From: Candidatus Bathyarchaeia archaeon | GTDB lineage: Archaea > Thermoproteota > CALKCG01 > B24 | Reading direction: 5' to 3' | DNA: 64,000 nucleotides | NCBI GenBank assembly: GCA_038870975.1 | Contig: JAVZJD010000002.1 | Coordinates: 320,001 to 384,000, forward strand | In this document: positions 45,359 to 56,847 of the stretch, in pieces | How positions within the stretch are numbered: the first letter of the stretch is position 1 | How the letters are laid out: each line of letters opens with the position of its first letter | Made by a program: the position numbers and the translations under genes | The notes under the pieces: model-generated | Database searches by the model: none | The model's input: the letters and a program-made list of their open reading frames with translations, nothing else | What the model was told of the DNA's origin: nothing

Positions 45359-46220
45359 ATGGCCTTTCAAAATCAGATATCCCGCTCAAGCTGGAGCATT
45401 TTACAGTGGGAGCCGTGACGGACTGATTAAGCAAATAGAAGAGTGTTTTAAGCATAAGCTTGGACCTGGATACCTGCCTAAAGTCAGATCTATTGGTGAA
45501 GGAGAGAGAAAGATCTGTGGATTAGTATCGCCTCACGCAGGGTATATGTATTCTGGACCTGTTGCAGCACATGGATATTGTAAACTTGCTGAGGATGGCA
45601 CCCCCAATGTCTTTGTAATACTGGGCCCCAACCATACTGGATTGGGGAGTGGTATTTCCATATACCCATTTGAGGGAATTTGGAGGACACCGCTTGGAAA
45701 CGTTGAAGTAGATTCTCAAACATGTAAGAAAATAGTTGAAGCTTCAGATTTAATAGATATCGATGAAAGAGCGCATTCATATGAGCATTCAATTGAAGTG
45801 CAGATTCCATTTCTCCAATACCTCTATGGATCTCCCAGAATAGTACCAATATGTATGCTCATGCAAGACCTTGAGACTTCTAGGGAGCTTGGAGAAGCTT
45901 TAGCCACAGCTCTTAAAAATATTGATGCTGTCATAATAGCTTCTACAGATTTAAACCACTACGAGCCTCACGAAAGAACTATTAGGAAAGATAGGCTCGT
46001 CATAGATGCCATTCTTAAAATGGATGAAGAGGCTTTATTTAAAGCCGTAGATGAAGGTGTCAGTATGTGTGGACCTGGCCCTGTAGCCACGATGATCGTA
46101 GCGTTAAAAACACTCGGAAATATTAAAACGACACTTCTAAGCCATAGGACGAGCGGAGATATAACTGGAGACTACTCGGCTGTTGTAGGATATGCTTCCA
46201 TAGTCTTTGAGCGTGTTTAA
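45359..46220 (+). CDS. MEMO1/AmmeMemoRadiSam protein B (start anomaly)
   Basis: In-frame KIRYPAQAGAFY from 45369, SPHAGYMYSG, GPNHTG, EHSIEVQIPF, ASTDLNHY, MCGPG. The ATG at 45359 is one base out of frame. Confidence 0.88.
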
Positions 46221-46221
46221 A

Positions 46222-47130
46222 ATGAAAAGCTACTGTAAAGCCTCTGCACCTGGTAAAGTAATACTTTTCGGAGAACACTTCGTGGTGTATGGGGAGCCGG
46301 CTATAGCTGTAGCGATTGACCTTAGAGTTAAAGTAACGGCATATAAGTCTCAAACCACTTTCATTGAAGGCTTTAGAACTACTCTAGTCGATAAGGCACT
46401 AGCCGTCGCCCTAAAAGCTGTAAGCTCGAAGAGAGAGGATGTCCACGTGAAAATAGAGTCTAACTTGCCAATATCGGTTGGGTTAGGTTCTTCAGCAGCT
46501 ACCGCCTCAGCCATCATAGCCGCGATAGCTGGTCTATTCGAAGTTAAACTATCTAAAGATGAACTTTTCAAAATGACCCTAGAATGTGAAAAAACTGTGC
46601 ATGTAAATCCTTCAGGCATAGATCCAGCTGTAGCGGTAAACGGTGGAGCCATACTATATCAACGTGGAGTAGGAGCTAAACCAGTGAAACTATTGGAAGA
46701 TTTTACGCTCGTCGTGGGGAATACTGGAGAAAGGAGATCTACAGGGGTTATGGTTGAAAAGGTTAGAGCTTTTGCTGAGAAGAGGACGGATGTAATGGAG
46801 CGCCTTAGGAAGACCTACTTATCCACTGTTTTAAGAGCATTAAAGGCACTTGAAGAGGGGGATCTTGAAGAATTGGGGTTGCTTATGAATGTAAACCACG
46901 GCCTACTCGAAGCCCTGGGTGTTTCAAATTTCAAACTTAATAAACTCGTGTATGCATCTAGGGAGGCTGGAGCTTTAGGGGCTAAAATGACTGGGGGTGG
47001 AGGAGGAGGATGTATGGTAGCCCTAGTGCCTAAGGAGAGATTAAAATTCGTTGTAGAAGGTATAAAACAGGCTGGAGGAGAACCCATAGTTGCTCCAGTG
47101 TCTAGAATTGGTGTGACTTATGAAGATTGA
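46222..47130 (+). CDS. mvk: Mevalonate kinase
   Basis: APGKVILFGEHFVVYG, GLGSSA, HVNPSGID, KMTGGGGGG. Confidence 0.95.
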   Translation: MKSYCKASAPGKVILFGEHFVVYGEPAIAVAIDLRVKVTAYKSQTTFIEGFRTTLVDKALAVALKAVSSKREDVHVKIESNLPISVGLGSSAATASAIIAAIAGLFEVKLSKDELFKMTLECEKTVHVNPSGIDPAVAVNGGAILYQRGVGAKPVKLLEDFTLVVGNTGERRSTGVMVEKVRAFAEKRTDVMERLRKTYLSTVLRALKALEEGDLEELGLLMNVNHGLLEALGVSNFKLNKLVYASREAGALGAKMTGGGGGGCMVALVPKERLKFVVEGIKQAGGEPIVAPVSRIGVTYED

Positions 47131-47917
47131 GGCTATAATTAAACTCGGCGGTAGTGTTATAACAGTTAAAGACAGGTTTATGGCTGTTAACCGTAAAGCT
47201 TTAAACAGGCTTGCACATGAAATTTCAGCCTCAAGCTTGGAAAGAGTCGTTATAGTGCATGGAGGGGGGTCTTTCGGACATCCCCTAGCTTTAAAATACG
47301 GGTTGAACAAAGAGTTTACAGGGTTGGAAGAACAGATCGCAGGTTTCTCTATAACGCATAGAGCTATGCTTAAACTTAACGAAAAAGTTCTGGAGGCATT
47401 AGAACGTAGGGGTTTAAAAGTTGTTCCCTTACCGCCCATAGCTTTCGCAACACTTGCATTGGGCAATTTAAAAAGTCTCTTCTACGAACCTTTTATCAAT
47501 GCTTTAAAAATGGGTTTAATACCGGTAACATTTGGTGATGTTGCATTCGACCTTTATAGGGGTTTCTCAATAATCTCTGGAGATTTGCTTATGTCTAAGC
47601 TCTCATGTAAACTTAAACCTTTAAAAGCCGTCTTTACAATCGACGTCGATGGATTATATACGGATAACCCTAAGTACAACCCCGAAGCGCAACTTGTAAC
47701 TGAGGCTACGGTTGATGAAGTAGATGCCCTTATAAGGCGATTGAGCTTTAAATCGTCTGATGCTACTGGTGGAATGTGGTTCAAACTCGAACGTGCATGT
47801 GAAATAGCTCGCATGGGTGTGGATGTCTATATAATCAGTGGATTAAAACCCGGGAGGCTTTTTAAAGTTCTTAAGGGTGAGAAAGTTATGGGTACAGTGA
47901 TAAAAGGTGTTCAATAG
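47120..47917 (+). CDS. Isopentenyl phosphate kinase
   Basis: KLGGSVIT, HGGGSFGH, SGD, DVDG, DATGGM; mevalonate context. Confidence 0.92.
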   Translation: MKIEAIIKLGGSVITVKDRFMAVNRKALNRLAHEISASSLERVVIVHGGGSFGHPLALKYGLNKEFTGLEEQIAGFSITHRAMLKLNEKVLEALERRGLKVVPLPPIAFATLALGNLKSLFYEPFINALKMGLIPVTFGDVAFDLYRGFSIISGDLLMSKLSCKLKPLKAVFTIDVDGLYTDNPKYNPEAQLVTEATVDEVDALIRRLSFKSSDATGGMWFKLERACEIARMGVDVYIISGLKPGRLFKVLKGEKVMGTVIKGVQ

Positions 47918-49011
47918 TGGATTCCATAGGTAGAAGGAAGAACGACCATATACGCATCTGTTCCGAGAAAGAAGTTGAGGCGAAAACAATTACTCCTGGC
48001 TTTGAAAACGTGCACTTAATACATAGATGTATACCAGAAATAGACTTTGAAAAAATAGACCTTTCCGTTAAATTTCTAGGCTTCAATTTTAAAGCTCCAA
48101 TAATGATTTCAGCTATGACTGGCGGAACAGCTGAAGCTACTAAGATAAACGCCAACTTAGCTAAAGCCGCTGGAGAACTTGGGATAGGTATGTGTCTTGG
48201 GAGTGGAAGAGTATGTCTTAAAAATCCAAGTTCCATACAATCTTTTAAGATAGCAAGAGAGAATGCAGAAAAGGCATTTATTTCAGCTAATATAGGTTTT
48301 CAGGAGCTTTTAACACATTCATATGGTGAATTGAAAAAATTGGTTGAAATACTTGATGCAAATGCTCTAACTGTCCATTTAAATCCTCTTCATGAACTCC
48401 TCCAACATGAAGGTTCAGGAATTTTTAAGGGAATTTTGAATAGACTCAGGGAATTGAAATTGAACCTTGAATGCCCTTTGATAGTTAAAGAGGTCGGGTC
48501 CGGTATATGTAGAGAAGACGCTAAACTTTTAGCATCTACGGGTATCGACGCACTTGAAACCTCTGGAGCGGGTGGGACAAGTTGGGCTGGTGTAGAGTAC
48601 TATAGAAACATAGAGGCTGGTGAAGAAGAGAAAGCTGAACTTTCTAAAACCTTCTGGGATTGGGGTATTCCAACGGCTATATCCATACTCGAAGTGAAAT
48701 CTGTTGTAAAATTACCTTTGGTAGCTTCAGGAGGCATTCGGAGCGGTTTAGATGTTGCTAAAGCCTTAGTTTTAGGTGCAGATTTAGCTGGTTTAGCACT
48801 CCCACTACTTAAACCTGCGATAGAAAGTTGGGAGAGTGTTCTGAAAGTCTTAAGAAGAATTCGTGAGGAATTAAAGTTGGCTATGGTTTTAACAGGCTCT
48901 GAGACTATAGAAGAGCTTAAAAGCAGGCCATATGTTTTAACTGGTCTCGTTAGAGACTGGGCTGTATTTAGGAAACTGAAAATTAGGTGTGAAGAATGGC
49001 AAACCTCATGA
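47917..49011 (+). CDS. fni: Type 2 isopentenyl-diphosphate isomerase
   Basis: RRKNDHI, SAMTGG, HLNPLHE, KEVGSG, GAGGTSW, WGIPT, SGGIR. Confidence 0.94.
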   Translation: MDSIGRRKNDHIRICSEKEVEAKTITPGFENVHLIHRCIPEIDFEKIDLSVKFLGFNFKAPIMISAMTGGTAEATKINANLAKAAGELGIGMCLGSGRVCLKNPSSIQSFKIARENAEKAFISANIGFQELLTHSYGELKKLVEILDANALTVHLNPLHELLQHEGSGIFKGILNRLRELKLNLECPLIVKEVGSGICREDAKLLASTGIDALETSGAGGTSWAGVEYYRNIEAGEEEKAELSKTFWDWGIPTAISILEVKSVVKLPLVASGGIRSGLDVAKALVLGADLAGLALPLLKPAIESWESVLKVLRRIREELKLAMVLTGSETIEELKSRPYVLTGLVRDWAVFRKLKIRCEEWQTS

Positions 49012-50003
49012 ATGAATTATCCATAATTTCAGAGAAGGTTTCCAGGGAAATCTGTAAGGTTATCGGGGAACTTAACATTCCAGATGCCTTACGCGAATCT
49101 AGTTATCATCTTCTAAAAGCTGGTGGTAAAAGACTTAGACCGTTTGTAATTGTAAAGTCTTATGAAGCATGTGGTGGAACCGGCTCCAAGCCATATCCAG
49201 CCGCTGTGGCAGTTGAAATTCTACACACGTTCACGTTGATTCACGATGATATAATCGACCGTGATGAAACCAGAAGGGGAGTCCCGACTGTTCACATACT
49301 CTGGGGGATTCCACAAGCCATAATATCAGGCGATATGCTCTTCGCATTGGTTTATAAAATTCTTTCTAGAAATATGAGAGCTGAAGGCATTAGAGACTCC
49401 ATTATAGTGGAAGTTATCGAGAGATTTTCCGAAGCTCTGATAGACATCTGTGCGGGACAAACTATGGATATGAAACTGGCTGAGAAGCCAATACGCGGTG
49501 TAACAATTGAGGAGTATATGAGAATGATTAACCTTAAGACGGCTAGACTCTACATGGTTTCCGCAGAAATAGGCGCACTCATAGCTGAGGCTTCTCCAAA
49601 GGAGGTTGAGGCGTTGAGAAACTACGGACTGTATTCTGGTATGGCTTTCCAAATGGTCGACGATATACTTGGGGTTTCAGGCGTCGAAAAAGAGCTTGGC
49701 AAACCTGTCGGAAGCGATATAAGAGAGGGGAAAAAGACCATAGTCGTTCTCGAGGCTTTAAGTAGACTTGATGATTGGGGGAGGCGAAGACTTATGGAGG
49801 TTTTAGGTAGCCGAACTGCTTCTAAAGAGCAGATACTAGAAGCCATAAGACTCATAGAGTCTTCAGGCGCTATAGAGCATGCCAAAAAACTCGCCCATGA
49901 GTATTCTCTAAAGGCAAAAAAAGCCTTAAGTTTACTTCCCAAGACAGAAGCTAGAGACCTTCTAGAAGCTTTAACGGACTTCATAGTTGAACGGAGATAC
50001 TAG
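48996..50003 (+). CDS. Geranylgeranyl diphosphate synthase (polyprenyl synthetase)
   Basis: GGKRLRP, FTLIHDDIIDRDETRRG, KT, FQMVDDILG, GKPVGSDIREGK. Confidence 0.93.
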   Translation: MANLMNELSIISEKVSREICKVIGELNIPDALRESSYHLLKAGGKRLRPFVIVKSYEACGGTGSKPYPAAVAVEILHTFTLIHDDIIDRDETRRGVPTVHILWGIPQAIISGDMLFALVYKILSRNMRAEGIRDSIIVEVIERFSEALIDICAGQTMDMKLAEKPIRGVTIEEYMRMINLKTARLYMVSAEIGALIAEASPKEVEALRNYGLYSGMAFQMVDDILGVSGVEKELGKPVGSDIREGKKTIVVLEALSRLDDWGRRRLMEVLGSRTASKEQILEAIRLIESSGAIEHAKKLAHEYSLKAKKALSLLPKTEARDLLEALTDFIVERRY

Positions 50004-50067
50004 GACCTTCAATTGGATTAAGTTAGAGGTAAAAATTTAGAGAGCCTAATGAGGTATAGTAACTAGT

Positions 50068-51351
50068 ATGAGCCTAACACTTAAAAACGGTTTAATAGTT
50101 ACGCCAAGAGGTGTTTTGAAGGGAGACTTAGTTGTTAAAAATGGATATATTAGTAAGATAGGCGGCTCTACTGAGACTGTAGGAGACGTTTTAAATTGCA
50201 ATGGTTGCTATATAGTCCCGGGTTTTAGAGAGCAACACATGCATGACGTCAACGGTTTAACTAAATTTTTGACGGATCCGGGTAGAATAGGATGGGTTTC
50301 TAGGTCATTAGTAGCTCAAGGAGTCACAGCGTTTCACCTAGCTACCATAGCTATGCCGATTGAAGACCTTCTGGAGTACTTAGAGACTTGTAGGCTCTAC
50401 ATGGAGTCCGGTGAGAATGGTGTTGAAGGAGCTAGGTTTGAAGGTGCTTACGTAGAGGGTACCTTCATAAATGTAGAATGTGCAGGTGCTCAACCCAAGG
50501 AATACATAGTTTCCCCGGGTTCTACCGAAGCTAGGGCTATAGTTGATAGTCTTTTGAAGACTGGAGTTGTCAAATTCATGAATATAGTTCCTGATTTCGG
50601 AGTAGACCTTATCAAGTATACGGCTTCTAAAGGTATTATAGTTGGGTGTGGACATACGAAAGCTCCAGCAAAAAAGTTGGAGGAGGCCTTCAATTCTGGT
50701 TTGAAATTCATAGTCCATATAACTAATGGCGCGATGGGGCAATCTTTCAAACCTTTCAACGGTGGTGGAGCATATGAGGCAGCATTAACTCTGCCTGTAT
50801 ATGTGGAGATTATCGTAGACGGCTATCACGTAGATTTTCGCTATGTCTCAGACATTATTGAGAGGAGGATTTCTAAAAATAGATTAAATGAAATTATAGC
50901 TATAACGGATTCTGCTTTTCCGATTAGAGAAGAAGTACCTACAGGAGAATTCAAATTGTTTTCGACGATATGCTGTAAACATCCTATTGAAGATGTTCTA
51001 GTAGTAAAGGGCTATTTTGATAGAGGAGAAGTAAAACCAGCACCTCCAAATACACTTTGTTCAAGTCTACTAACTATGAATAAGGCTTTCAGAAACCTCT
51101 TAAATATGTTTACAGTTAAACATTCAGGCTTCATGATAGACGCCGATTCCAGAAGCCTAGACGAATCCGTGAGACTTACGTCAATGTTTACATCATCCAA
51201 TCAAGCTGAATTAGAGGGGTCGAAAGATAGAGGAATTATTGAAAAGGGAAAAGTTGCTGATTTAACCGTTATAAGGATTGAGGGTGAACCTGGATATTTT
51301 GATGTCGAAATTGAAGCTACAATTGTCGGTGGGAGAATTTTCGAAATATAG
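50068..51351 (+). CDS. Divergent NagA-like amidohydrolase (N-acetyl amino-sugar deacetylase family)
   Basis: PGFREQHMH, YVEGTFIN, GAQ, GHT, HITN, IVDGYHV, ITDS, SLLTM, GKVADL. Confidence 0.75.
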   Translation: MSLTLKNGLIVTPRGVLKGDLVVKNGYISKIGGSTETVGDVLNCNGCYIVPGFREQHMHDVNGLTKFLTDPGRIGWVSRSLVAQGVTAFHLATIAMPIEDLLEYLETCRLYMESGENGVEGARFEGAYVEGTFINVECAGAQPKEYIVSPGSTEARAIVDSLLKTGVVKFMNIVPDFGVDLIKYTASKGIIVGCGHTKAPAKKLEEAFNSGLKFIVHITNGAMGQSFKPFNGGGAYEAALTLPVYVEIIVDGYHVDFRYVSDIIERRISKNRLNEIIAITDSAFPIREEVPTGEFKLFSTICCKHPIEDVLVVKGYFDRGEVKPAPPNTLCSSLLTMNKAFRNLLNMFTVKHSGFMIDADSRSLDESVRLTSMFTSSNQAELEGSKDRGIIEKGKVADLTVIRIEGEPGYFDVEIEATIVGGRIFEI

Positions 51352-51408
51352 TTAAAAAAAGAGTTTTATTTTAAGTAGTTTAAATAGATAATCACTTGGC
51401 TGAAAATA

Positions 51409-52170
51409 TTGTCTGCCATTCGTATCAGTCGAATCGTAAGACCAACTGATTTAAGATGCATTTTAGTTGACTGTAGCTACGACATTACTCTTCAGAATTT
51501 AACGTCTCGAGTAAGCATGGATATTATCAAGAAACTAGACGGTTTAATAGTAGCAGATGCAGATGCAGTGGTCAAAAACCTACATATATTTCTGGGTAAA
51601 ACCTCGCCAACTTACATTTTAAGAGTTGAACCTGAAGTTTTAAGGTCTTCAGATCCAAAGGCTAATGTTGAAGAGACTGTTATAAAGGCATTGCAAATGA
51701 ATTTTTCAGCGATTATTTCCACGTTTACAATAGGCTTTGAAGATGAAAGTATAGACTCCAACAACATGAAGCTCATAACGATGCTTTCTGATGTTTGCTA
51801 CGACTATGGATTACCCCTCATAGTCGAATCGATGCCTTTCGGCGAAAGAGTGAGTAGCGAAAACTATGGAGAGAGCGTGGGATTGGCCGCAAGAATGGCT
51901 GAGGAGGTGGGAGCATCCATAGTAGTAGTGCCACCTCTGAAGACGCTTGAAGATTTAAAAAAGGTTAGAGAATCTATTAAAGCTCATATGCTTCTCATAG
52001 ACCCTTCATCTAAGCTCGTAGTTGAAAGAAGTCTTCGAAGTCTTCCAGAGATTTTATCCGATGCCTTTAACATTGGATTAAACGGCATAGTTCTAAGTAG
52101 CTCTCTCGCCCTTAATGAGCCAGCCAAAATTCTATTGGACATACTGTCGACTGTTCACAGTGGAGGTTGA
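51409..52170 (+). CDS. Degenerate DhnA/LsrF-type class I aldolase paralog
   Basis: YGLPLIVESMP and AARMAEEVGASIVVVP, with Val at the Schiff-base Lys position. Confidence 0.7.
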   Translation: MSAIRISRIVRPTDLRCILVDCSYDITLQNLTSRVSMDIIKKLDGLIVADADAVVKNLHIFLGKTSPTYILRVEPEVLRSSDPKANVEETVIKALQMNFSAIISTFTIGFEDESIDSNNMKLITMLSDVCYDYGLPLIVESMPFGERVSSENYGESVGLAARMAEEVGASIVVVPPLKTLEDLKKVRESIKAHMLLIDPSSKLVVERSLRSLPEILSDAFNIGLNGIVLSSSLALNEPAKILLDILSTVHSGG

Positions 52171-52176
52171 TTTGAA

Positions 52177-53403
52177 TTGGGCTTTGGAAAAATAATCAGG
52201 TTAAATCAGATAATAGATCCATCAGATGGTAGGAGCTTGGTCGTAGCGGCAGACCACGGTTTAATGCTTGGACCTATAAAAGGCGTTATTGATTTAGAGG
52301 CGACTCTTCGAAAAGTCATAGCTGGTGGACCAGACGCCATCCTTTTAAGTCCAGGTCAGGCTAGAAGGTTACACCACCTTTTCACTGGTAAGGGTGCGCC
52401 AGCTATGCTTGTTAGAATAGATTGGACTAATGCGTTTAGAGATAAAACGTATACACTACCGGCTAGAAGCATACAATTCAATAGGGTTACCACTGTTAAA
52501 GATGCTGTTAAAATCGGGGCTTCAGGTGTTGTGACATATCTTTTTCTCGGTTTTGATAGAGAGAAAGATCATATGGCGATGGTTGAAGAATTTTCGGCTG
52601 AATGTGAGTATTGGGATATGCCTTTAATTGTAGAGCCACTACCCATGGGTCCTAGAGTCACTAAGGCAAATTATGTTGATATGGTTAAGATGGCTGTTGA
52701 AAAAGCCGTAGAGCTTGGAGCCGATGCGTTAAAGGTTCCGTATACAGGTGACCCATATTCATTCAGGGACATAGTCAAGGTTTCTTCGGGTGTACCAGTC
52801 TTAGTTTTAGGAGGCTATAAGGCGTTGAGTATAAGAGATTCATTAGAGGTTATATCTGAGGTTTTAGAATCAGGCGCCGCTGGAGTAGTTTTCGGTAGGA
52901 ATATTGTTCAAGACCAGAATCCAGATGAGGCCGTTAGACTTATGAAGAGGATAATACATGGAAAGGAGACGGTTACAGACATTCTGAGAGAGAGGATTAA
53001 GCCTCCAGTTAGAATAATAGTCGATGCTGAAAAATGCAGCGGTTGTCGTGTATGTGAAATTGCATGCAGTTTTACTCATGAGAAGGTTTTTGATCCATCG
53101 ATGGCGAGGTTGCGAATTGAAAACTCCAGTACTGGAGTATTATTCACTCCATATGTTTGTACACTATGCTATTCTTGTGTAAACGTCTGTCCGCAGAAGG
53201 CTCTTAAAGTAAACAGCAAAACTGGGGCTGTAGAAGTTTCACCCGAGCTATGTCAAGGTTGCGGAATCTGCGTTGAAACATGTCCGGCTGGAGTTTTAAA
53301 ACTTGTAAATGGAAGGCTCTTCTTATGCGATCTGTGTAACGGTTTACCAGAGTGTGTGAAATGGTGTTCTAGGAATGCTTTAAGGGTAGAAGGAGGCTGG
53401 TAA
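52177..53403 (+). CDS. Class I (DhnA-type) aldolase fused to a 4x[4Fe-4S] ferredoxin domain
   Basis: AADHG, PLIVEP, ELGADALKVPYTG, VLGG, FGRNI; C-terminal CSGCRVCEIAC, CTLCYSCVNVC, CQGCGICVETC, CDLCNGLPECVKWC. Confidence 0.88.
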   Translation: MGFGKIIRLNQIIDPSDGRSLVVAADHGLMLGPIKGVIDLEATLRKVIAGGPDAILLSPGQARRLHHLFTGKGAPAMLVRIDWTNAFRDKTYTLPARSIQFNRVTTVKDAVKIGASGVVTYLFLGFDREKDHMAMVEEFSAECEYWDMPLIVEPLPMGPRVTKANYVDMVKMAVEKAVELGADALKVPYTGDPYSFRDIVKVSSGVPVLVLGGYKALSIRDSLEVISEVLESGAAGVVFGRNIVQDQNPDEAVRLMKRIIHGKETVTDILRERIKPPVRIIVDAEKCSGCRVCEIACSFTHEKVFDPSMARLRIENSSTGVLFTPYVCTLCYSCVNVCPQKALKVNSKTGAVEVSPELCQGCGICVETCPAGVLKLVNGRLFLCDLCNGLPECVKWCSRNALRVEGGW

Positions 53404-53404
53404 T

Positions 53405-55231
53405 TTGAGCCTTTCAGGCAAGGGTTATGCAGGAGGCGTAGTTAAGATAGACCTTTCATCTGAGAGAGTGGAGAAAGCAGAATTATCCCAAAGAGACGCA
53501 TTAATGGTTCTGGGAGGGAAGGGTTTAGGTGCTCTCCTACTGTACAATTCTACACCTAAGTATGTAGACCCTTTAAGCCCTGAAAACCCATTAATATTGG
53601 CAACTGGCCCTTTAACTGGGACACTAGCACCTTCAAGCTGTCGTTTCAGCGTTGTAACTAAAAGCCCTCATACGGGTCTCTTCTTAGACTCCAACTGCGG
53701 AGGTTTCTTCGGCGTTGAGCTTAAAAAGGCTGGTTTTGATGTGGTTATAATCACTGGGAAGGCAAGTCAACTATCAATGGTCATTATAGATGATGGAAGG
53801 GTTCGCATAGAGGAAGCTACCGAACTCCGAGGTGCTAAAACCATGGATGCTGAGAAAAAGGTGAAGAAGAGGCTTAATGAGGAGTTTAGAGTTTTAACTA
53901 TAGGCCCAGCTGGTGAAGAATTAGCCCCTATAGCTGGAATTTTCACAGACCTACGTTGTGCCGGTAGAGGTGGAGCTGGAGCCGTCATGGGCTCTAAAAA
54001 CCTTAAAGCTATCGCAGTCAGAGGAAGTAGGCCAATATCCGTCTACGACCCTGAGGGTTTTGAAAAAGCGTGTTGGAGGGCCCATAGAAGGCTTAGAATG
54101 CATGAAGTCACAGCAAGAAGTCTACCGACCTACGGTACAGTCAACATAATTGAGACGATAAATGAGACGGGGGCGTTGCCGACTAGAAACTTTGAAACAG
54201 GTGTATTCTCAGATACTTGGAAAATATCCGGTTACGAGTGGCGTAAACAACTTTGGAAGAGGGATAAAGCCTGTTTCGGATGCCCTATAGCGTGCAGTAA
54301 ACTGGCATATATATCTGATTACGTAGTAGATGGCCCAGACTATGAAACATTATGGGCATTAGGACCATTATGTGGAGTTTCAGACAGAGAAGCTGTAGTT
54401 TACGCTAATTGGCTGTGTGATGCCTATGGTGTAGATACGATAAGCACAGGTGTTATTGTAAGCTTTGTCATGGAGCTGTATGAGAAGAAGTGCATCGGGA
54501 GTGAAGATATAGATGGAATACATGCCGAGTGGGGTAGTAGCGAAGCTCTATTGAAGCTCGTTGAGAAGATTTGTAAAGGTGATGGAGTTGGAAGGGAACT
54601 CAGACTCGGTGTTAGGAAGCTTAGCATTAAATATGGTTGTGAAGATATAGCTATGCACGTTAAAGGTTTGGAAATGCCAGGTTATGAGCCTAGAGCCGCT
54701 AAAGGCATGGGTCTAGGATACGCCACCTCAGATAGAGGCGCGTGCCATTTAAGGGCGTATACAGCCGATAAAGAGCTCTTAGCCTATGGGGGGGCCGTAG
54801 ACCCAGTTAAAATTGATGGAAAAGCGAGGCTCGTAGTAGACTATCAGAATGAAAAGGCTCTCATAGATTCCACAGGTATATGTTTCTTCGCATCTTTTGC
54901 CTTAACATTTAGGGAAATAGGGGATATGTTAACTACGGCTACGGGTTTACCGCTCGAAGACGCTACCACGTTGAAAACTATTGGAGAAAGAGTGTACAAC
55001 CTTACACGTCTTTTCAATGTGAGGGAGGGTATTAAACGGAAAGACGATTCTTTGCCACGTAGGTTTTTAGAAGAGCCTATGCCAGAGGGGCCTGCTAAAG
55101 GCTCTGTAGTAGAATTAAGTAAAATGTTGGATGAATACTACACCTTGCGAGGGTGGGATGAAAATGGCGTGCCAAAAGTTGAAACATTGAGACGGTTAAA
55201 CTTAGATTTAATACTTAACATAGGGAATTAG
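53405..55231 (+). CDS. Tungsten aldehyde:ferredoxin oxidoreductase
   Basis: KSPHTG, GRGGAGAVMGSKNLKA, CFGCPIAC, GPDYET, DTISTG, EMPGYEPR, RGACH, YYTLRGWD. Confidence 0.92.
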   Translation: MSLSGKGYAGGVVKIDLSSERVEKAELSQRDALMVLGGKGLGALLLYNSTPKYVDPLSPENPLILATGPLTGTLAPSSCRFSVVTKSPHTGLFLDSNCGGFFGVELKKAGFDVVIITGKASQLSMVIIDDGRVRIEEATELRGAKTMDAEKKVKKRLNEEFRVLTIGPAGEELAPIAGIFTDLRCAGRGGAGAVMGSKNLKAIAVRGSRPISVYDPEGFEKACWRAHRRLRMHEVTARSLPTYGTVNIIETINETGALPTRNFETGVFSDTWKISGYEWRKQLWKRDKACFGCPIACSKLAYISDYVVDGPDYETLWALGPLCGVSDREAVVYANWLCDAYGVDTISTGVIVSFVMELYEKKCIGSEDIDGIHAEWGSSEALLKLVEKICKGDGVGRELRLGVRKLSIKYGCEDIAMHVKGLEMPGYEPRAAKGMGLGYATSDRGACHLRAYTADKELLAYGGAVDPVKIDGKARLVVDYQNEKALIDSTGICFFASFALTFREIGDMLTTATGLPLEDATTLKTIGERVYNLTRLFNVREGIKRKDDSLPRRFLEEPMPEGPAKGSVVELSKMLDEYYTLRGWDENGVPKVETLRRLNLDLILNIGN

Positions 55232-55332
55232 GTAGTCTATTTAGTCTCTGTAAATCTGGTGGAGCGCAGAAGAAGATGAAGTCGGGCTGAATTGCCTTTA
55301 AAATTTAAAGTCAGCTTGAGGAATACTGTTCC

Positions 55333-56847
55333 TTGAAAGATTTGACAAGCTATATAGTTAGCGTAGACATAGGTACGACTAATGTTAAAGCGGTAGCCTT
55401 TGATTTAGAAGGGAGGCAGAAGTCTAAAAGAAGTGTTCGATGTAGAGTGTATTCACCTTTTGAAGGATGGGCTGAACAGAGGGCCGATGAGATTTTAAAC
55501 TCCGTGATCGAGGCTGTGAAGTCATGCGTTAAAGATATCGATGGTATAGTGGAGGCTTTAGCATTTAGCTCCCAATTGTACAGTGTCGCATTCATAGACA
55601 AGGATGGAAATATTTTAAGTCCCATACTGAATTGGATGGATTCCAGAAGCAAAATAGAGGCTTTCGAGCTCTCAGAAGCAATAGGGGGGTATGAAATCTA
55701 CCGTAGGACTGGTTGCCATATCAGCCCCATTATGCCAGCCTCTAAAATCTTATGGTTTAGAAAAAATAACCCTGAAATGTTCAGTAGAGTTTACAAGGTT
55801 CTTTCGATAAAAGACTATGTTCTATACAGGCTTTTAAACGTATATGTTATGGATAAAATACTGGCTTCAGCTACTGCGCTATTCAACATACATAGGGGTA
55901 GATGGGACTCAGAAATAGTTGAAACAATAGGTTTAGACATGGATAAGCTTCCAGAGGTCGTTGAGCCAGAATCCATAGTGGGTCAATTGAAGGGGTTCTA
56001 TGCGGAGAAGATCGGACTTCCCAACGGAACTCCAGTAGTCTGTGGGGGTGGAGACGGTATGCTTCAGAATTTAGGATTGGGGGTTCTGAAAAGTGGTATA
56101 GCGGCTTTAAACATAGGGACAAGTGGTGCAGTTAGAGTATCTTCTAACCGTATAACTCTTGACAAATCGAGAAAAGCAAGGTTTTTCTGCCACAGTTTGG
56201 CTGAGGGATATTGGTGCATAGGTGGTGCTATTAACTCAGCTGGATTATCCTTTGAATGGTTTGCTGAAAACTTCCTCGGTGGAGATTTCAATCGTATTGA
56301 AGTTGAAGCTTCTAAAGCCAAGCCCGGTTCTAATGGTTTAATATTTCTACCGTATCTTTTAGACGAGAGAGCACCGCTTTGGTGCACTGCAGCTAAAGCC
56401 GTTCTATACGGTTTAAGTTTAAAACATAGTCTTTCAGATGTCACTAGAGCCGTCTTAGAAGGTGTTGTATTCGCATTAAACCATATCAGGATTGTTCTTG
56501 AGAAGTATGTCCCTCCAGTAAGGGAAATTAGAGCTGGTGGTGGAGGAGCTAAAATAGACCTTCTAAATCAAATTCAAGCAGACGTTTTTCAAACTCCTGT
56601 CTTCTTAACATCTACTGAAGAAAGCTCTTCTCTAGGTGCAGCTATTCTAGCGGCTAAGACTCTAGGCTATTACGGGAGTTTAAACGATGCATGCAACTCT
56701 ACTGTTAAAATAACTAAAGTATTCAAGCCAATTCCTGAGAACAGTATAGAATACTACAAGCTATTTGAAAAATACTGTAAGATTTCAAACCATTTATACA
56801 AATACTTCTTCAAGCCCTCTGAGAATCTCTACAGTTCTCAGGTTTAA
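55333..56847 (+). CDS. FGGY-family carbohydrate kinase (gluconokinase/xylulokinase-like)
   Basis: DIGTTNVK, WMDSRS, GGGDG, IGTSG, FLPYLLDERAP, GGGA. Confidence 0.9.
   Translation: MKDLTSYIVSVDIGTTNVKAVAFDLEGRQKSKRSVRCRVYSPFEGWAEQRADEILNSVIEAVKSCVKDIDGIVEALAFSSQLYSVAFIDKDGNILSPILNWMDSRSKIEAFELSEAIGGYEIYRRTGCHISPIMPASKILWFRKNNPEMFSRVYKVLSIKDYVLYRLLNVYVMDKILASATALFNIHRGRWDSEIVETIGLDMDKLPEVVEPESIVGQLKGFYAEKIGLPNGTPVVCGGGDGMLQNLGLGVLKSGIAALNIGTSGAVRVSSNRITLDKSRKARFFCHSLAEGYWCIGGAINSAGLSFEWFAENFLGGDFNRIEVEASKAKPGSNGLIFLPYLLDERAPLWCTAAKAVLYGLSLKHSLSDVTRAVLEGVVFALNHIRIVLEKYVPPVREIRAGGGGAKIDLLNQIQADVFQTPVFLTSTEESSSLGAAILAAKTLGYYGSLNDACNSTVKITKVFKPIPENSIEYYKLFEKYCKISNHLYKYFFKPSENLYSSQV

Follow-up and report, generated by a model that had tools for sequence, protein, structure and literature searches.

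On balance, the functional unit of this locus appears to be a module of three genes (51409-55231) that would encode one enzyme complex, and not the full run of five genes in which the module lies. The trio, found in the window (the whole stretch of 64,000 nucleotides that was analysed), consists of a pseudo-aldolase, an aldolase fused to an iron-sulfur cluster domain, and an aldehyde:ferredoxin oxidoreductase (AOR), and it occurs in about 43 dereplicated lineages of both archaea and bacteria. The first-pass annotation had described five co-oriented ORFs with gaps of 57, 6, 1 and 101 nt, and the ORF listing confirms them on the + strand. Its family calls (NagA-like amidohydrolase, degenerate aldolase, aldolase fusion, AOR and FGGY kinase) agree with the profile scores; the ‘degenerate aldolase’ has indeed lost the Schiff-base Lys and the AADHG and GG/GR phosphate motifs, and the ‘polyferredoxin’ part of the fusion does carry 16 conserved Cys. 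The features of the locus are as follows.

50030-50039, TATA-like box upstream of the amidohydrolase, similar to that at 51379..51386 (read from the sequence)
50068..51351, + strand, NagA-family amidohydrolase (427 aa ORF)
51379..51386, + strand, A/T-rich TATA-like box about 23-30 nt upstream of the pseudo-aldolase start (read from the sequence)
51409..52170, + strand, pseudo-aldolase, a DhnA-fold paralogue, trio gene 1 (253 aa ORF)
52177..53403, + strand, aldolase and cluster-domain fusion, trio gene 2 (408 aa ORF)
52177..52992, + strand, DhnA-type class I aldolase domain of the fusion, residues 1-272 (DeoC, 118 bits)
52993..53403, + strand, 16-Cys domain of AOR small-subunit type at the C-terminus of the fusion (Cys pattern, PDB matches)
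53405..55231, + strand, tungsten-type AOR, trio gene 3 (608 aa ORF; AFOR_N and AFOR_C)
55297-55309, TATA-like box upstream of the FGGY kinase, similar to that at 51379..51386 (read from the sequence)
55333..56847, + strand, FGGY carbohydrate kinase (504 aa ORF; FGGY_N and FGGY_C)

The start codons of the five ORFs are the earliest possible ones, TTG in four of them. Shine-Dalgarno boxes (GGAGGT and AGGAGG) are placed about 9-10 nt upstream of the fusion and AOR starts and lie inside the preceding genes, the intergenic gaps being 6 and 1 nt. The TATA-like boxes ahead of the amidohydrolase, the pseudo-aldolase and the kinase suggest three separately promoted units.

Clustering of the trio loci at 85% identity gives 43 groups, and adjacency was counted over the 66 trio loci with sufficient flank. 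The AOR gene adjoins the fusion in 65 of these loci and the pseudo-aldolase gene in 61, at least four of the remaining five being ORF-calling artefacts. The three genes are adjacent and co-oriented in archaeal loci of Bathyarchaeia, Hadarchaeota and Asgard lineages, and likewise in Chloroflexota, Ignavibacteriales, Bacteroidota, Zhuqueibacterota and Phycisphaerae; many of the hosts are uncultured archaea and bacteria. The genes around the trio differ entirely from lineage to lineage, and most loci are without a dedicated transporter or kinase. A search of the literature and of solved structures for an aldolase-AOR trio found no description, a look-up in a protein atlas returned only automatically named aldolase/Fer4 clusters, and the word ‘aldolase’ is absent from a 2025 review of tungsten enzymes (PMC12096430).

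The aldolase part of the fusion retains the core of its family. Besides the DeoC match, Fer4 domains also match in the fusion, and the closest solved relative of the aldolase domain is the ADH synthase MJ0400 (148.7 bits; Foldseek TM 0.89). D26, H27, G212-G213 and G240-R241 do not vary among 82 fusion sequences, at least 90% of which have K186; all of these residues are found in 22/22 fused locus copies and are missing from the aligned pseudo-aldolases. K186, D26, G212-G213 and G240-R241 align with the MJ0400 motifs for the Schiff-base Lys, the Asp and P1 phosphate binding. The catalytic Tyr of the MJ0400 YPRG motif, presumably the counterpart of the proton-shuttle Tyr146 of T. tenax FBP aldolase, is replaced by Leu155 inside a conserved E153-P154-x-P motif, and hence the chemistry of the fused aldolase may differ from that of its closest characterised relatives. 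A literature search for structural detail on MJ0400 yielded no list of the residues that form the distal phosphate site. The fusion falls below the cut-offs for both ADH synthase (TIGR01949, 177 against 299.45) and archaeal FBP aldolase (NF040816, 155.7 against 430), and a genuine ADH synthase (TIGR01949, 349.8 bits) is encoded elsewhere in the genome; by these scores the fusion does not look like the plain FBP aldolase or ADH synthase that the first-pass annotation had considered as an alternative.

The partner encoded upstream is an aldolase in fold only. It matches the DeoC/DhnA profile weakly (26.7 bits), and in the 21-22 aligned paralogues the Schiff-base position holds V, T, I, A, M or S (V in the window) and never Lys, while the AADHG, GG and GR motifs are missing from all. 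R80, D82 and R88 (fusion numbering) are mostly retained together with the fold glycines, and the fold itself is predicted to be kept, given the DeoC match and a pLDDT of 89 in the complex model. When used alone as a query, the pseudo-aldolase finds 11 matches, only among close relatives, because the family diverges quickly. Complex prediction for the pseudo-aldolase with the fused aldolase domain gives an ipSAE of 0.60 against 0.00 for the best control, with at least 95% of contacts in agreement between runs and a partner pLDDT of at least 88. The pass mark is attained by 58/80 solved complexes and by 2/110 mismatched pairs, and an ipSAE of 0.60 or less is seen in only 7/80 solved complexes and in both of the passing mismatched pairs. 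The prediction lends weak support to the pairing, and the pass may echo memorised structures of homo-oligomeric DhnA aldolases.

The C-terminal domain of the fusion links the aldolase to the AOR. In the 82 sequences 15 of its 16 Cys never change and the remaining one, C362, is retained by at least 90% (16/16 invariant in a 14-sequence set), and its best PDB matches are the Fe-S subunit of WOR5 (6x6u_B, E 6e-28; 6x1o_B) and the AorA-type 8c0z_C (E 1e-21). By this pattern the 16 Cys are assigned to four [4Fe-4S] clusters of the WOR5-S/AorA small-subunit type. The AF2 model has a pLDDT of 92.7 and a pTM of 0.85. Homology and the strict adjacency of the genes point to a domain that would bind the AOR large subunit and relay electrons.

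The AOR itself scores 239 bits for AFOR_N and 454 bits for AFOR_C, and matches P. furiosus AOR (1aor) with 517 bits over residues 9-598, as against 237 bits for WOR5. Its T245, E314, Y427 and H448 align with the second-shell residues Thr243, Glu313, Tyr427 and His448 of P. furiosus AOR, and C290, C293, C297 and C493 with the [4Fe-4S] cluster ligands Cys288/291/295/494 (residue list in PMC12096430). The protein is AOR-sensu-stricto-like by these residues, and ‘tungsten-type’ describes its family, as a sequence cannot tell W from Mo. Conservation of four basic residues, K39, R228, R231 and R280, is specific to the trio AORs. The genome contains seven AOR paralogues; a tungstate/molybdate-type ABC transporter adjoins another of them, CdhD genes are found near one, and a second operon combines FGGY, MBL, ferredoxin and AOR genes.

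These features lean, slightly more than not, toward a heteromeric aldolase seated on an AOR, which cleaves a phosphorylated ketose, oxidises the aldehyde and sends the electrons out through the fused clusters. The active DhnA-type aldolase and its dead paralogue would form a hetero-oligomer, and the fused four-cluster domain would act as the AOR small subunit (cf. WOR5-S, AorA) and dock the AOR. The candidate substrate, a phosphorylated ketose, would be bound via its phosphate-proximal keto group, form a Schiff base on K186 and be cleaved. The phosphorylated three-carbon half (DHAP-like) would remain in central metabolism, the released aldehyde, perhaps channelled, would be turned into the acid at once by the AOR, and two electrons would leave the AOR cluster by way of the four fused ones for ferredoxin or a different low-potential acceptor. 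The direction is assumed, because AORs are reversible in vitro and non-activated acids are reduced with low-potential donors (PMC9295118).

One possible ketose is fructose 1,6-bisphosphate (FBP). If the aldolase cleaves FBP and the AOR takes glyceraldehyde 3-phosphate to 3-phosphoglycerate, as GAPOR and GOR do, the trio would be a glycolytic short cut. In most loci the trio stands by itself with no transporter or kinase dedicated to it, as would suit a substrate from central metabolism; by fold the aldolase is nearest to MJ0400 and the T. tenax FBP aldolase, and it retains the P1 phosphate motifs; a search of this genome for a GAPOR orthologue found none; the four trio-specific basic residues of the AOR could bind an anionic group; and a multi-subunit AOR-family enzyme that oxidises glyceraldehyde 3-phosphate (GOR) is known (PMC12096430). 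The AOR is, however, nearest to the broad-specificity AOR sensu stricto and reaches only 43 bits on the GAPOR model, at the N-terminus only, so that its identity as a GAPOR is rejected. The archaeal FBP aldolase score is likewise far below its cut-off and the catalytic Tyr is missing, and this short cut is considered unlikely.

A little less probable still is a module that runs in reverse, with reduced ferredoxin driving an acid to the aldehyde on the AOR and the aldolase condensing the aldehyde with DHAP into a sugar phosphate. The acid reduction noted above (PMC9295118) would permit it, an aldol condensation beside the AOR would pull the unfavourable reduction step, the hosts are anaerobes with low-potential metabolism (e.g., the CdhD genes near an AOR paralogue), and the electron-wire fusion is compatible with either direction. 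Yet the neighbours of the trio, where they are informative, encode glycoside hydrolases, sugar kinases and one sulfatase, all of them catabolic, and an FBP aldolase/phosphatase for gluconeogenesis is already present in the genome. A similarly slim chance is given to a ring-shaped hetero-oligomer of active and dead aldolases that holds AORs on Fe-S wires, channels the aldehyde and may run reductively from organic acids to sugar phosphates; such an assembly, if true, would be a previously unknown type of metabolic machine.

Sugar kinases (PfkB or FGGY) occur within 10 kb of the trio in 13/43 groups, and the counts among the 43 groups are 14 for AP_endonuc_2, seven each for FGGY and PfkB, and six for LarA-like genes. 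This genome of 1.85 Mb has 27 AP_endonuc_2 and seven FGGY matches over the cut-off, from which about 27% and about 8% of 20-kb windows, respectively, are estimated to contain one by chance. Sugar genes around the trio thus reach at most about twice the background, and their enrichment was rejected as strong evidence, AP_endonuc_2 and FGGY being common in the genome.

Two further genes flank the trio in the window. The first-pass annotation had joined all five genes into one pathway in which a modified or N-acylated sugar is phosphorylated, deacylated and cleaved, and the resulting aldehyde is oxidised. The genes are close and co-oriented, five genomes of the genus and four metagenome loci (at least 79% identity) preserve the gene order, and the same genome has the second FGGY-MBL-ferredoxin-AOR operon. 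The amidohydrolase scores 123.1 bits for NagA (TIGR00221, GlcNAc-6-phosphate deacetylase), under the equivalog cut-off of 225.65, but it retains all NagA catalytic residues. H57, H59, E130, the AGAQP loop, H196, H217, H254 and D281 are kept in its orthologues from three genera, and the metal and catalytic residues (HxH, Glu, His, His, Asp) together with AGAQP and DGYH in nine orthologues, and it looks catalytically intact. A search of the neighbourhood in other genomes, however, found only the trio co-conserved. Of 76 trio loci only four, all of the same genus (at least 79% identity), have a NagA-like gene no more than 10 kb from the fusion, and the other 72 lack one. Within the class, three genera have an orthologue of the amidohydrolase, which adjoins the trio in g1 alone; the sister genus carries the trio on a contig other than that of the amidohydrolase and the kinase, and in family f4 the orthologue belongs to another operon, with AP_endonuc_2, DHDPS-like and DHODH-like genes. 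An opposite-strand ORF of 317-338 aa separates the AOR and FGGY genes in three congeners (G001, G003 and G005), and a TATA-like box precedes each of the three units.

The kinase matches both FGGY_N and FGGY_C and reaches no subfamily cut-off (GntK 372 against 648; XylB 357 against 380). Its gene is syntenic with that of ribosomal protein S3Ae, and the sister genus has this pair as well, there with no trio beside it. At 25-32% identity to the window kinase, the FGGY kinases found near other trios are too distant to be its orthologues. The five-gene pathway is accordingly rated very unlikely, and the amidohydrolase and FGGY kinase would rather, by a somewhat favoured reading, be intact sugar-metabolism genes that flank the module by chance in one genus. 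The sequence aldolase, aldehyde, ferredoxin-linked AOR remains the best reading of the middle three genes. Two of the five genes fail the co-conservation check that the first-pass annotation had set for its own model, and nothing ties amino-sugar deacetylation to the aldolase. For annotation, such genus-level synteny of NagA-like and FGGY genes should not be taken as a pathway. It is hardly credible that the fused aldolase is an ADH-synthase isoenzyme that makes aromatic amino acids while the AOR provides or consumes an aldehyde of that pathway. ADH synthase does give the best NCBIfam and PDB matches, and the opposite strand carries aroC and pheA 5 kb upstream. This identity is nevertheless rejected by the sub-cut-off TIGR01949 score and the separate true ADH synthase, the catalytic Tyr is missing, and the trio is also present in bacteria such as Chloroflexota and Bacteroidota, which would be expected to use the DAHP route to aromatics.

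Few AOR-family tungsten enzymes have a known physiological substrate, and the trio is a rare genomic pointer to the aldehyde that one AOR clade oxidises in vivo. In both archaea and bacteria it ties an aldolase covalently to an AOR electron-transfer subunit. It also provides a naturally occurring example of a pseudoenzyme retained as a subunit, and with three genes it is compact enough for expression and cryo-EM.

Among known systems, the trio resembles WOR5/ASOR of P. furiosus (6x6u, 6x1o) and AorAB(C) of A. aromaticum (8c0z) in having a large AFOR_N/AFOR_C subunit beside a 16-Cys small subunit. It differs from both in that a putatively active aldolase carries the small subunit as its C-terminal domain, and in that a dead aldolase is the third constant partner. 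The FAD subunit (AorC) of AorABC is absent from the trio, and the large subunit is nearer to P. furiosus AOR than to WOR5. The aldolase shares the TIM barrel of MJ0400 (2qjg), T. tenax FBP aldolase (1ojx) and E. coli LsrF (TM 0.88-0.89), and has the Schiff-base Lys, the Asp and the P1 phosphate-binding GG/GR of DhnA-type (class IA) aldolases. Unlike these, it is under every equivalog cut-off, has the Tyr replaced within the conserved E-P motif, bears a cluster domain, is predicted to be heteromeric, and shares a family-specific R-x-D-W-T-N-x-F-R loop with its dead paralogue.

GAPOR in archaea and GOR in bacteria are AOR-family enzymes that oxidise an aldolase product with ferredoxin, as is proposed for the trio. 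The likeness to GAPOR is slight in score, as given above, and GOR, a multi-subunit glyceraldehyde-3-phosphate:ferredoxin oxidoreductase, is compared by its description (PMC12096430); no aldolase fusion or co-encoding was found for either, as far as the literature covered.

Couples of an aldolase and an aldehyde dehydrogenase that hand over the aldehyde include DmpFG/BphIJ and the RhaEW fusion of an aldolase and a lactaldehyde dehydrogenase. In these and in the KD(P)G aldolase couple the aldolases are of class II or DHDPS type and the dehydrogenases depend on NAD(P) or CoA. None of them is known to join its aldolase to a tungsten enzyme's electron-transfer subunit or to use a pseudo-aldolase. 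In the non-phosphorylative Entner-Doudoroff branch, KD(P)G aldolase operates with an AOR-type glyceraldehyde oxidoreductase (context in PMC2063504). The trio, as proposed, and all of these couples have a common logic, in which C-C cleavage is followed by the immediate oxidation of a reactive aldehyde.

Five co-oriented ORFs, separated by gaps of 57, 6, 1 and 101 nt, follow a mevalonate-pathway operon in the window. Their positions are those given in the first-pass annotation, and the family names used there agree with the Pfam and NCBIfam profile matches.

45546-50003, + strand, mevalonate-pathway operon (MEMO-like AmmeMemoRadiSam B, mevalonate kinase, isopentenyl phosphate kinase, IDI2, GGPP synthase)
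50068-51351, + strand, NagA-like amidohydrolase (TIGR00221 at 123 bits, cut-off 225.65)
51409-52170, + strand, aldolase paralogue, a very weak DeoC/DhnA match (26.7 bits)
52177-53403, + strand, fusion of a strong DeoC aldolase match with C-terminal Fer4 domains (Pfam)
53405-55231, + strand, AOR, an AFOR_N/AFOR_C protein (Pfam)
55333-56847, + strand, FGGY kinase (GntK 372 bits and XylB 357 bits, neither reaching its cut-off)

The mevalonate-pathway operon is compact and ends 64 nt 5' of the amidohydrolase gene, an order that is the same throughout the window's genus, and a ribosomal protein S3Ae gene lies downstream of the five genes on the opposite strand. A/T-rich TATA-like boxes are found in the window sequence 5' of the amidohydrolase, paralogue and kinase genes, while a GGAGGT box precedes the fusion start and an AGGAGG box the AOR start, each within the preceding gene. 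Read from the sequence, these boxes would fit three transcription units.

The same annotation had proposed all five genes as one sugar-catabolic system and named co-conservation as a test, which fails for the two outer genes, the amidohydrolase and the FGGY kinase. On two long contigs from other lineages just the paralogue, the fusion and the AOR (hereafter the trio) recur. When the five window proteins were searched by tblastn in 19 genome loci whose fusion is full-length, the paralogue and the AOR turned up at nearly all of them, a distant FGGY kinase at two and the amidohydrolase at none; clustering of all trio neighbours gave no further family common to several phyla. Amidohydrolase orthologues (at least 55% identity) occur in three genera among 41 related genomes, with no additional cases elsewhere in the class. 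With 20 kb fetched per orthologue, the order of mevalonate operon, amidohydrolase, trio, FGGY kinase and S3Ae was seen only in the window's genus. The sister genus has the amidohydrolase and the FGGY-S3Ae pair no more than about 8 kb apart, with the trio on a separate contig (G007:C8:47093-49064). Three congeners (G001, G003, G005) carry an opposite-strand ORF of 317-338 aa between the AOR and FGGY genes. In family f4, the amidohydrolase orthologue belongs to another operon, with xylose-isomerase-like TIM-barrel (AP_endonuc_2), DHDPS-family and DHODH-like Fe-S flavoprotein genes.

L107:7837-14470, f4 NagA-like orthologue operon (G010)
L115:11227-13260, Bathyarchaeota B24 locus

This f4 operon is divergent from a DUF6785/DUF6784 membrane protein gene, and a gene of the same family lies directly 3' of the trio in Bathyarchaeota B24. 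A second sample comprised 80 metagenome loci, in 76 of which the amidohydrolase was sought within 10 kb of the fusion; it was present in four, all at least 79% identical and therefore from the window's own genus. The amidohydrolase-trio association is thus confined to that genus in all samples examined. The five-gene pathway has no support as one unit.

The three-gene aldolase/pseudo-aldolase/AOR module itself is real and widely conserved. In the 66 loci with enough flanking DNA to score adjacency, the AOR is adjacent to and co-oriented with the fusion in 65 and the paralogue is adjacent in 61, mostly upstream and after the AOR in two or three. Of the five loci that seem to be exceptions, at least four reflect ORF-calling artefacts, since gene calls show the missing genes; at L185 the paralogue gene overlaps the 3' end of the AOR gene. 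The trio loci form 43 groups at 85% identity. Going by the titles of the records, archaeal hosts include Bathyarchaeia, Hadarchaeota, Brockarchaeota and Asgard lineages (Loki-, Sigyn- and Promethearchaeota), and bacterial hosts Chloroflexota/Anaerolineales, Ignavibacteriales, Bacteroidota, Zhuqueibacterota, Calditrichota and Phycisphaerae. A second copy of the trio, at 44% identity, is present in two congeners. Its pseudo-aldolase and fusion pair (G002:C19:70028-72009 and G005:C144:1955-3930) is only 43-44% identical to the first, which suggests that one genome holds two modules, either isofunctional or of different specificity.

In database searches the fusion protein is most closely related to Bathyarchaeota/Bathyarchaeia MAG proteins, which places the window in a Bathyarchaeia genome. 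The AlphaFold model of the fusion shows two domains with confidence (pLDDT 92.7, pTM 0.85). The aldolase domain is nearest to the ADH synthase MJ0400 of M. jannaschii (148.7 bits; Foldseek TM 0.89), followed by the FBP aldolase of T. tenax and LsrF. D26-H27, the Schiff-base K186 and the phosphate-binding G212-G213 and G240-R241 are kept in all 22 fused copies; unlike in MJ0400, the Tyr of the YPRG motif is replaced by Leu, within a conserved E153-P154 motif. Every NCBIfam equivalog score falls under its cut-off and the genome separately encodes a true ADH synthase, a DERA and an FBP aldolase/phosphatase; hence the fusion represents a DhnA subfamily of its own rather than a housekeeping enzyme. 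An ADH-synthase role for the fused aldolase is accordingly barely credible. The C-terminal domain, comprising the final 137 residues with 16 conserved Cys, resembles the four-cluster small subunits of WOR5 (6x6u_B, E 6e-28) and of the AorA type (8c0z_C), which outscore all other solved proteins.

The upstream paralogue has the Schiff-base Lys in none of 22 copies (V/T/I/A/M/S are found there), and AADHG, GG and GR are absent from all 22. It largely retains R80, D82 and R88 (fusion numbering) and the fold glycines, which also define a family-specific loop of the active aldolase. As the catalytic motifs are gone while fold residues are largely kept, the paralogue is, by its residues, a conserved pseudoenzyme and presumably a structural partner. 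Its predicted complex with the aldolase domain reached an ipSAE of 0.60 against 0.00 for the best control, passing a mark met by 58/80 solved complexes and 2/110 mismatched pairs; scores of 0.60 or less occur in only 7/80 solved complexes and in both passing mismatched pairs. The runs share at least 95% of contacts, with partner pLDDT of at least 88. The model lends weak support to binding of the aldolase domain by the paralogue, and the pass may reflect memory, because homo-oligomeric DhnA aldolases have already been solved.

The trio AOR scores 517 bits against the P. furiosus AOR and retains the four cluster Cys and four second-shell residues listed in a 2025 review (PMC12096430). When the genome's six other AOR paralogues are compared, K39, R228, R231, N247 and R280 stand out as conserved specifically in trio AORs, N247 being two residues past the active-site Thr; the basic ones among them may face the substrate channel or an interface. 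Three of the genome's other AOR paralogues have neighbours of their own outside the window.

G000:C1:828093-832881 (L198:4093-8881), minus strand, operon of FGGY kinase, metallo-beta-lactamase-fold protein (302 aa), 135-aa multi-cluster ferredoxin and AOR paralogue (581 aa), adjoined by two CdhD-type genes
G000:C1:785530-790254 (L199:5530-10254), two SBP_bac_11 solute-binding proteins and an ABC permease directly 5' of an AOR paralogue
G000:C2:251835-257231, bona fide ADH synthase (TIGR01949, 349.8 bits) about 4 kb from an AOR paralogue (642-aa open frame)

The SBP_bac_11 proteins, which we take to be of the molybdate/tungstate type, and the permease are likely a tungstate uptake system beside its client AOR.

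Near the trio, AP_endonuc_2 genes occur in 14 of the 43 groups, PfkB and FGGY genes in seven each and LarA-like genes in six, along with glycoside hydrolases, a sulfatase and an alpha-galactosidase. Such sugar genes carry little weight because they are abundant, the window's genome having 27 AP_endonuc_2 and 7 FGGY matches over cut-off, and their estimated excess near the trio is at most about twofold over background. Some neighbourhoods are lineage-specific. For example, Hadarchaeota-type loci (L019:6610-9081, also L162 and L172) have an FGGY kinase, a Cgl0159-like DhnA aldolase and a hexapeptide-repeat transferase divergent from the trio and KaiC/GvpD-like ATPases after the AOR. Likewise, four Anaerolineales loci (L009, L012, L014, L018) have a LarA-like (lactate racemase family) gene directly 5' and a TauE/SafE-type permease directly 3' of the trio, with UPF0261, FAD-linked oxidase, PfkB and several AP_endonuc_2 genes nearby. 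In one bacterial lineage, the gene of a 491-aa NTPase_1 protein (L110:7741-9216, L111:2404-3879) overlaps the pseudo-aldolase start by 4 nt and is possibly a fourth operon gene restricted to that lineage.

The best-supported reading of the trio, which we hold at somewhat better than an even chance, is a complex of aldolase and AOR in which a phosphorylated ketose would be cleaved via K186 of the fused aldolase, the aldehyde half would then be oxidised by the AOR, and the electrons would exit along the fused cluster chain. The sequences show which genes are present, their conservation, the residue patterns and the homology of the cluster domain; complex formation, this reaction direction and channelling are what we infer. 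A short cut from FBP to 3-phosphoglycerate has a small but real chance: GAPOR was not found in the window's genome, but the trio AOR is of the broad-specificity type. That the trio runs reductively and assimilates an acid is unlikely, although AORs reduce acids (PMC9295118). The chance of the five-gene pathway is slim.

Literature searches found no description of an obligatory dead aldolase alongside a fusion of an active aldolase with the electron-transfer subunit of an AOR; the 2025 tungsten-enzyme review (PMC12096430) never mentions aldolase. Among solved structures no chain is an aldolase-cluster fusion. The parts of the trio belong to known families, namely AOR/WOR, WOR5-S/AorA-type small subunits and DhnA-type aldolases. 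Functional analogues of the trio are DmpFG/BphIJ, RhaEW, and the pairing of KD(P)G aldolase with a glyceraldehyde oxidoreductase of the AOR type.
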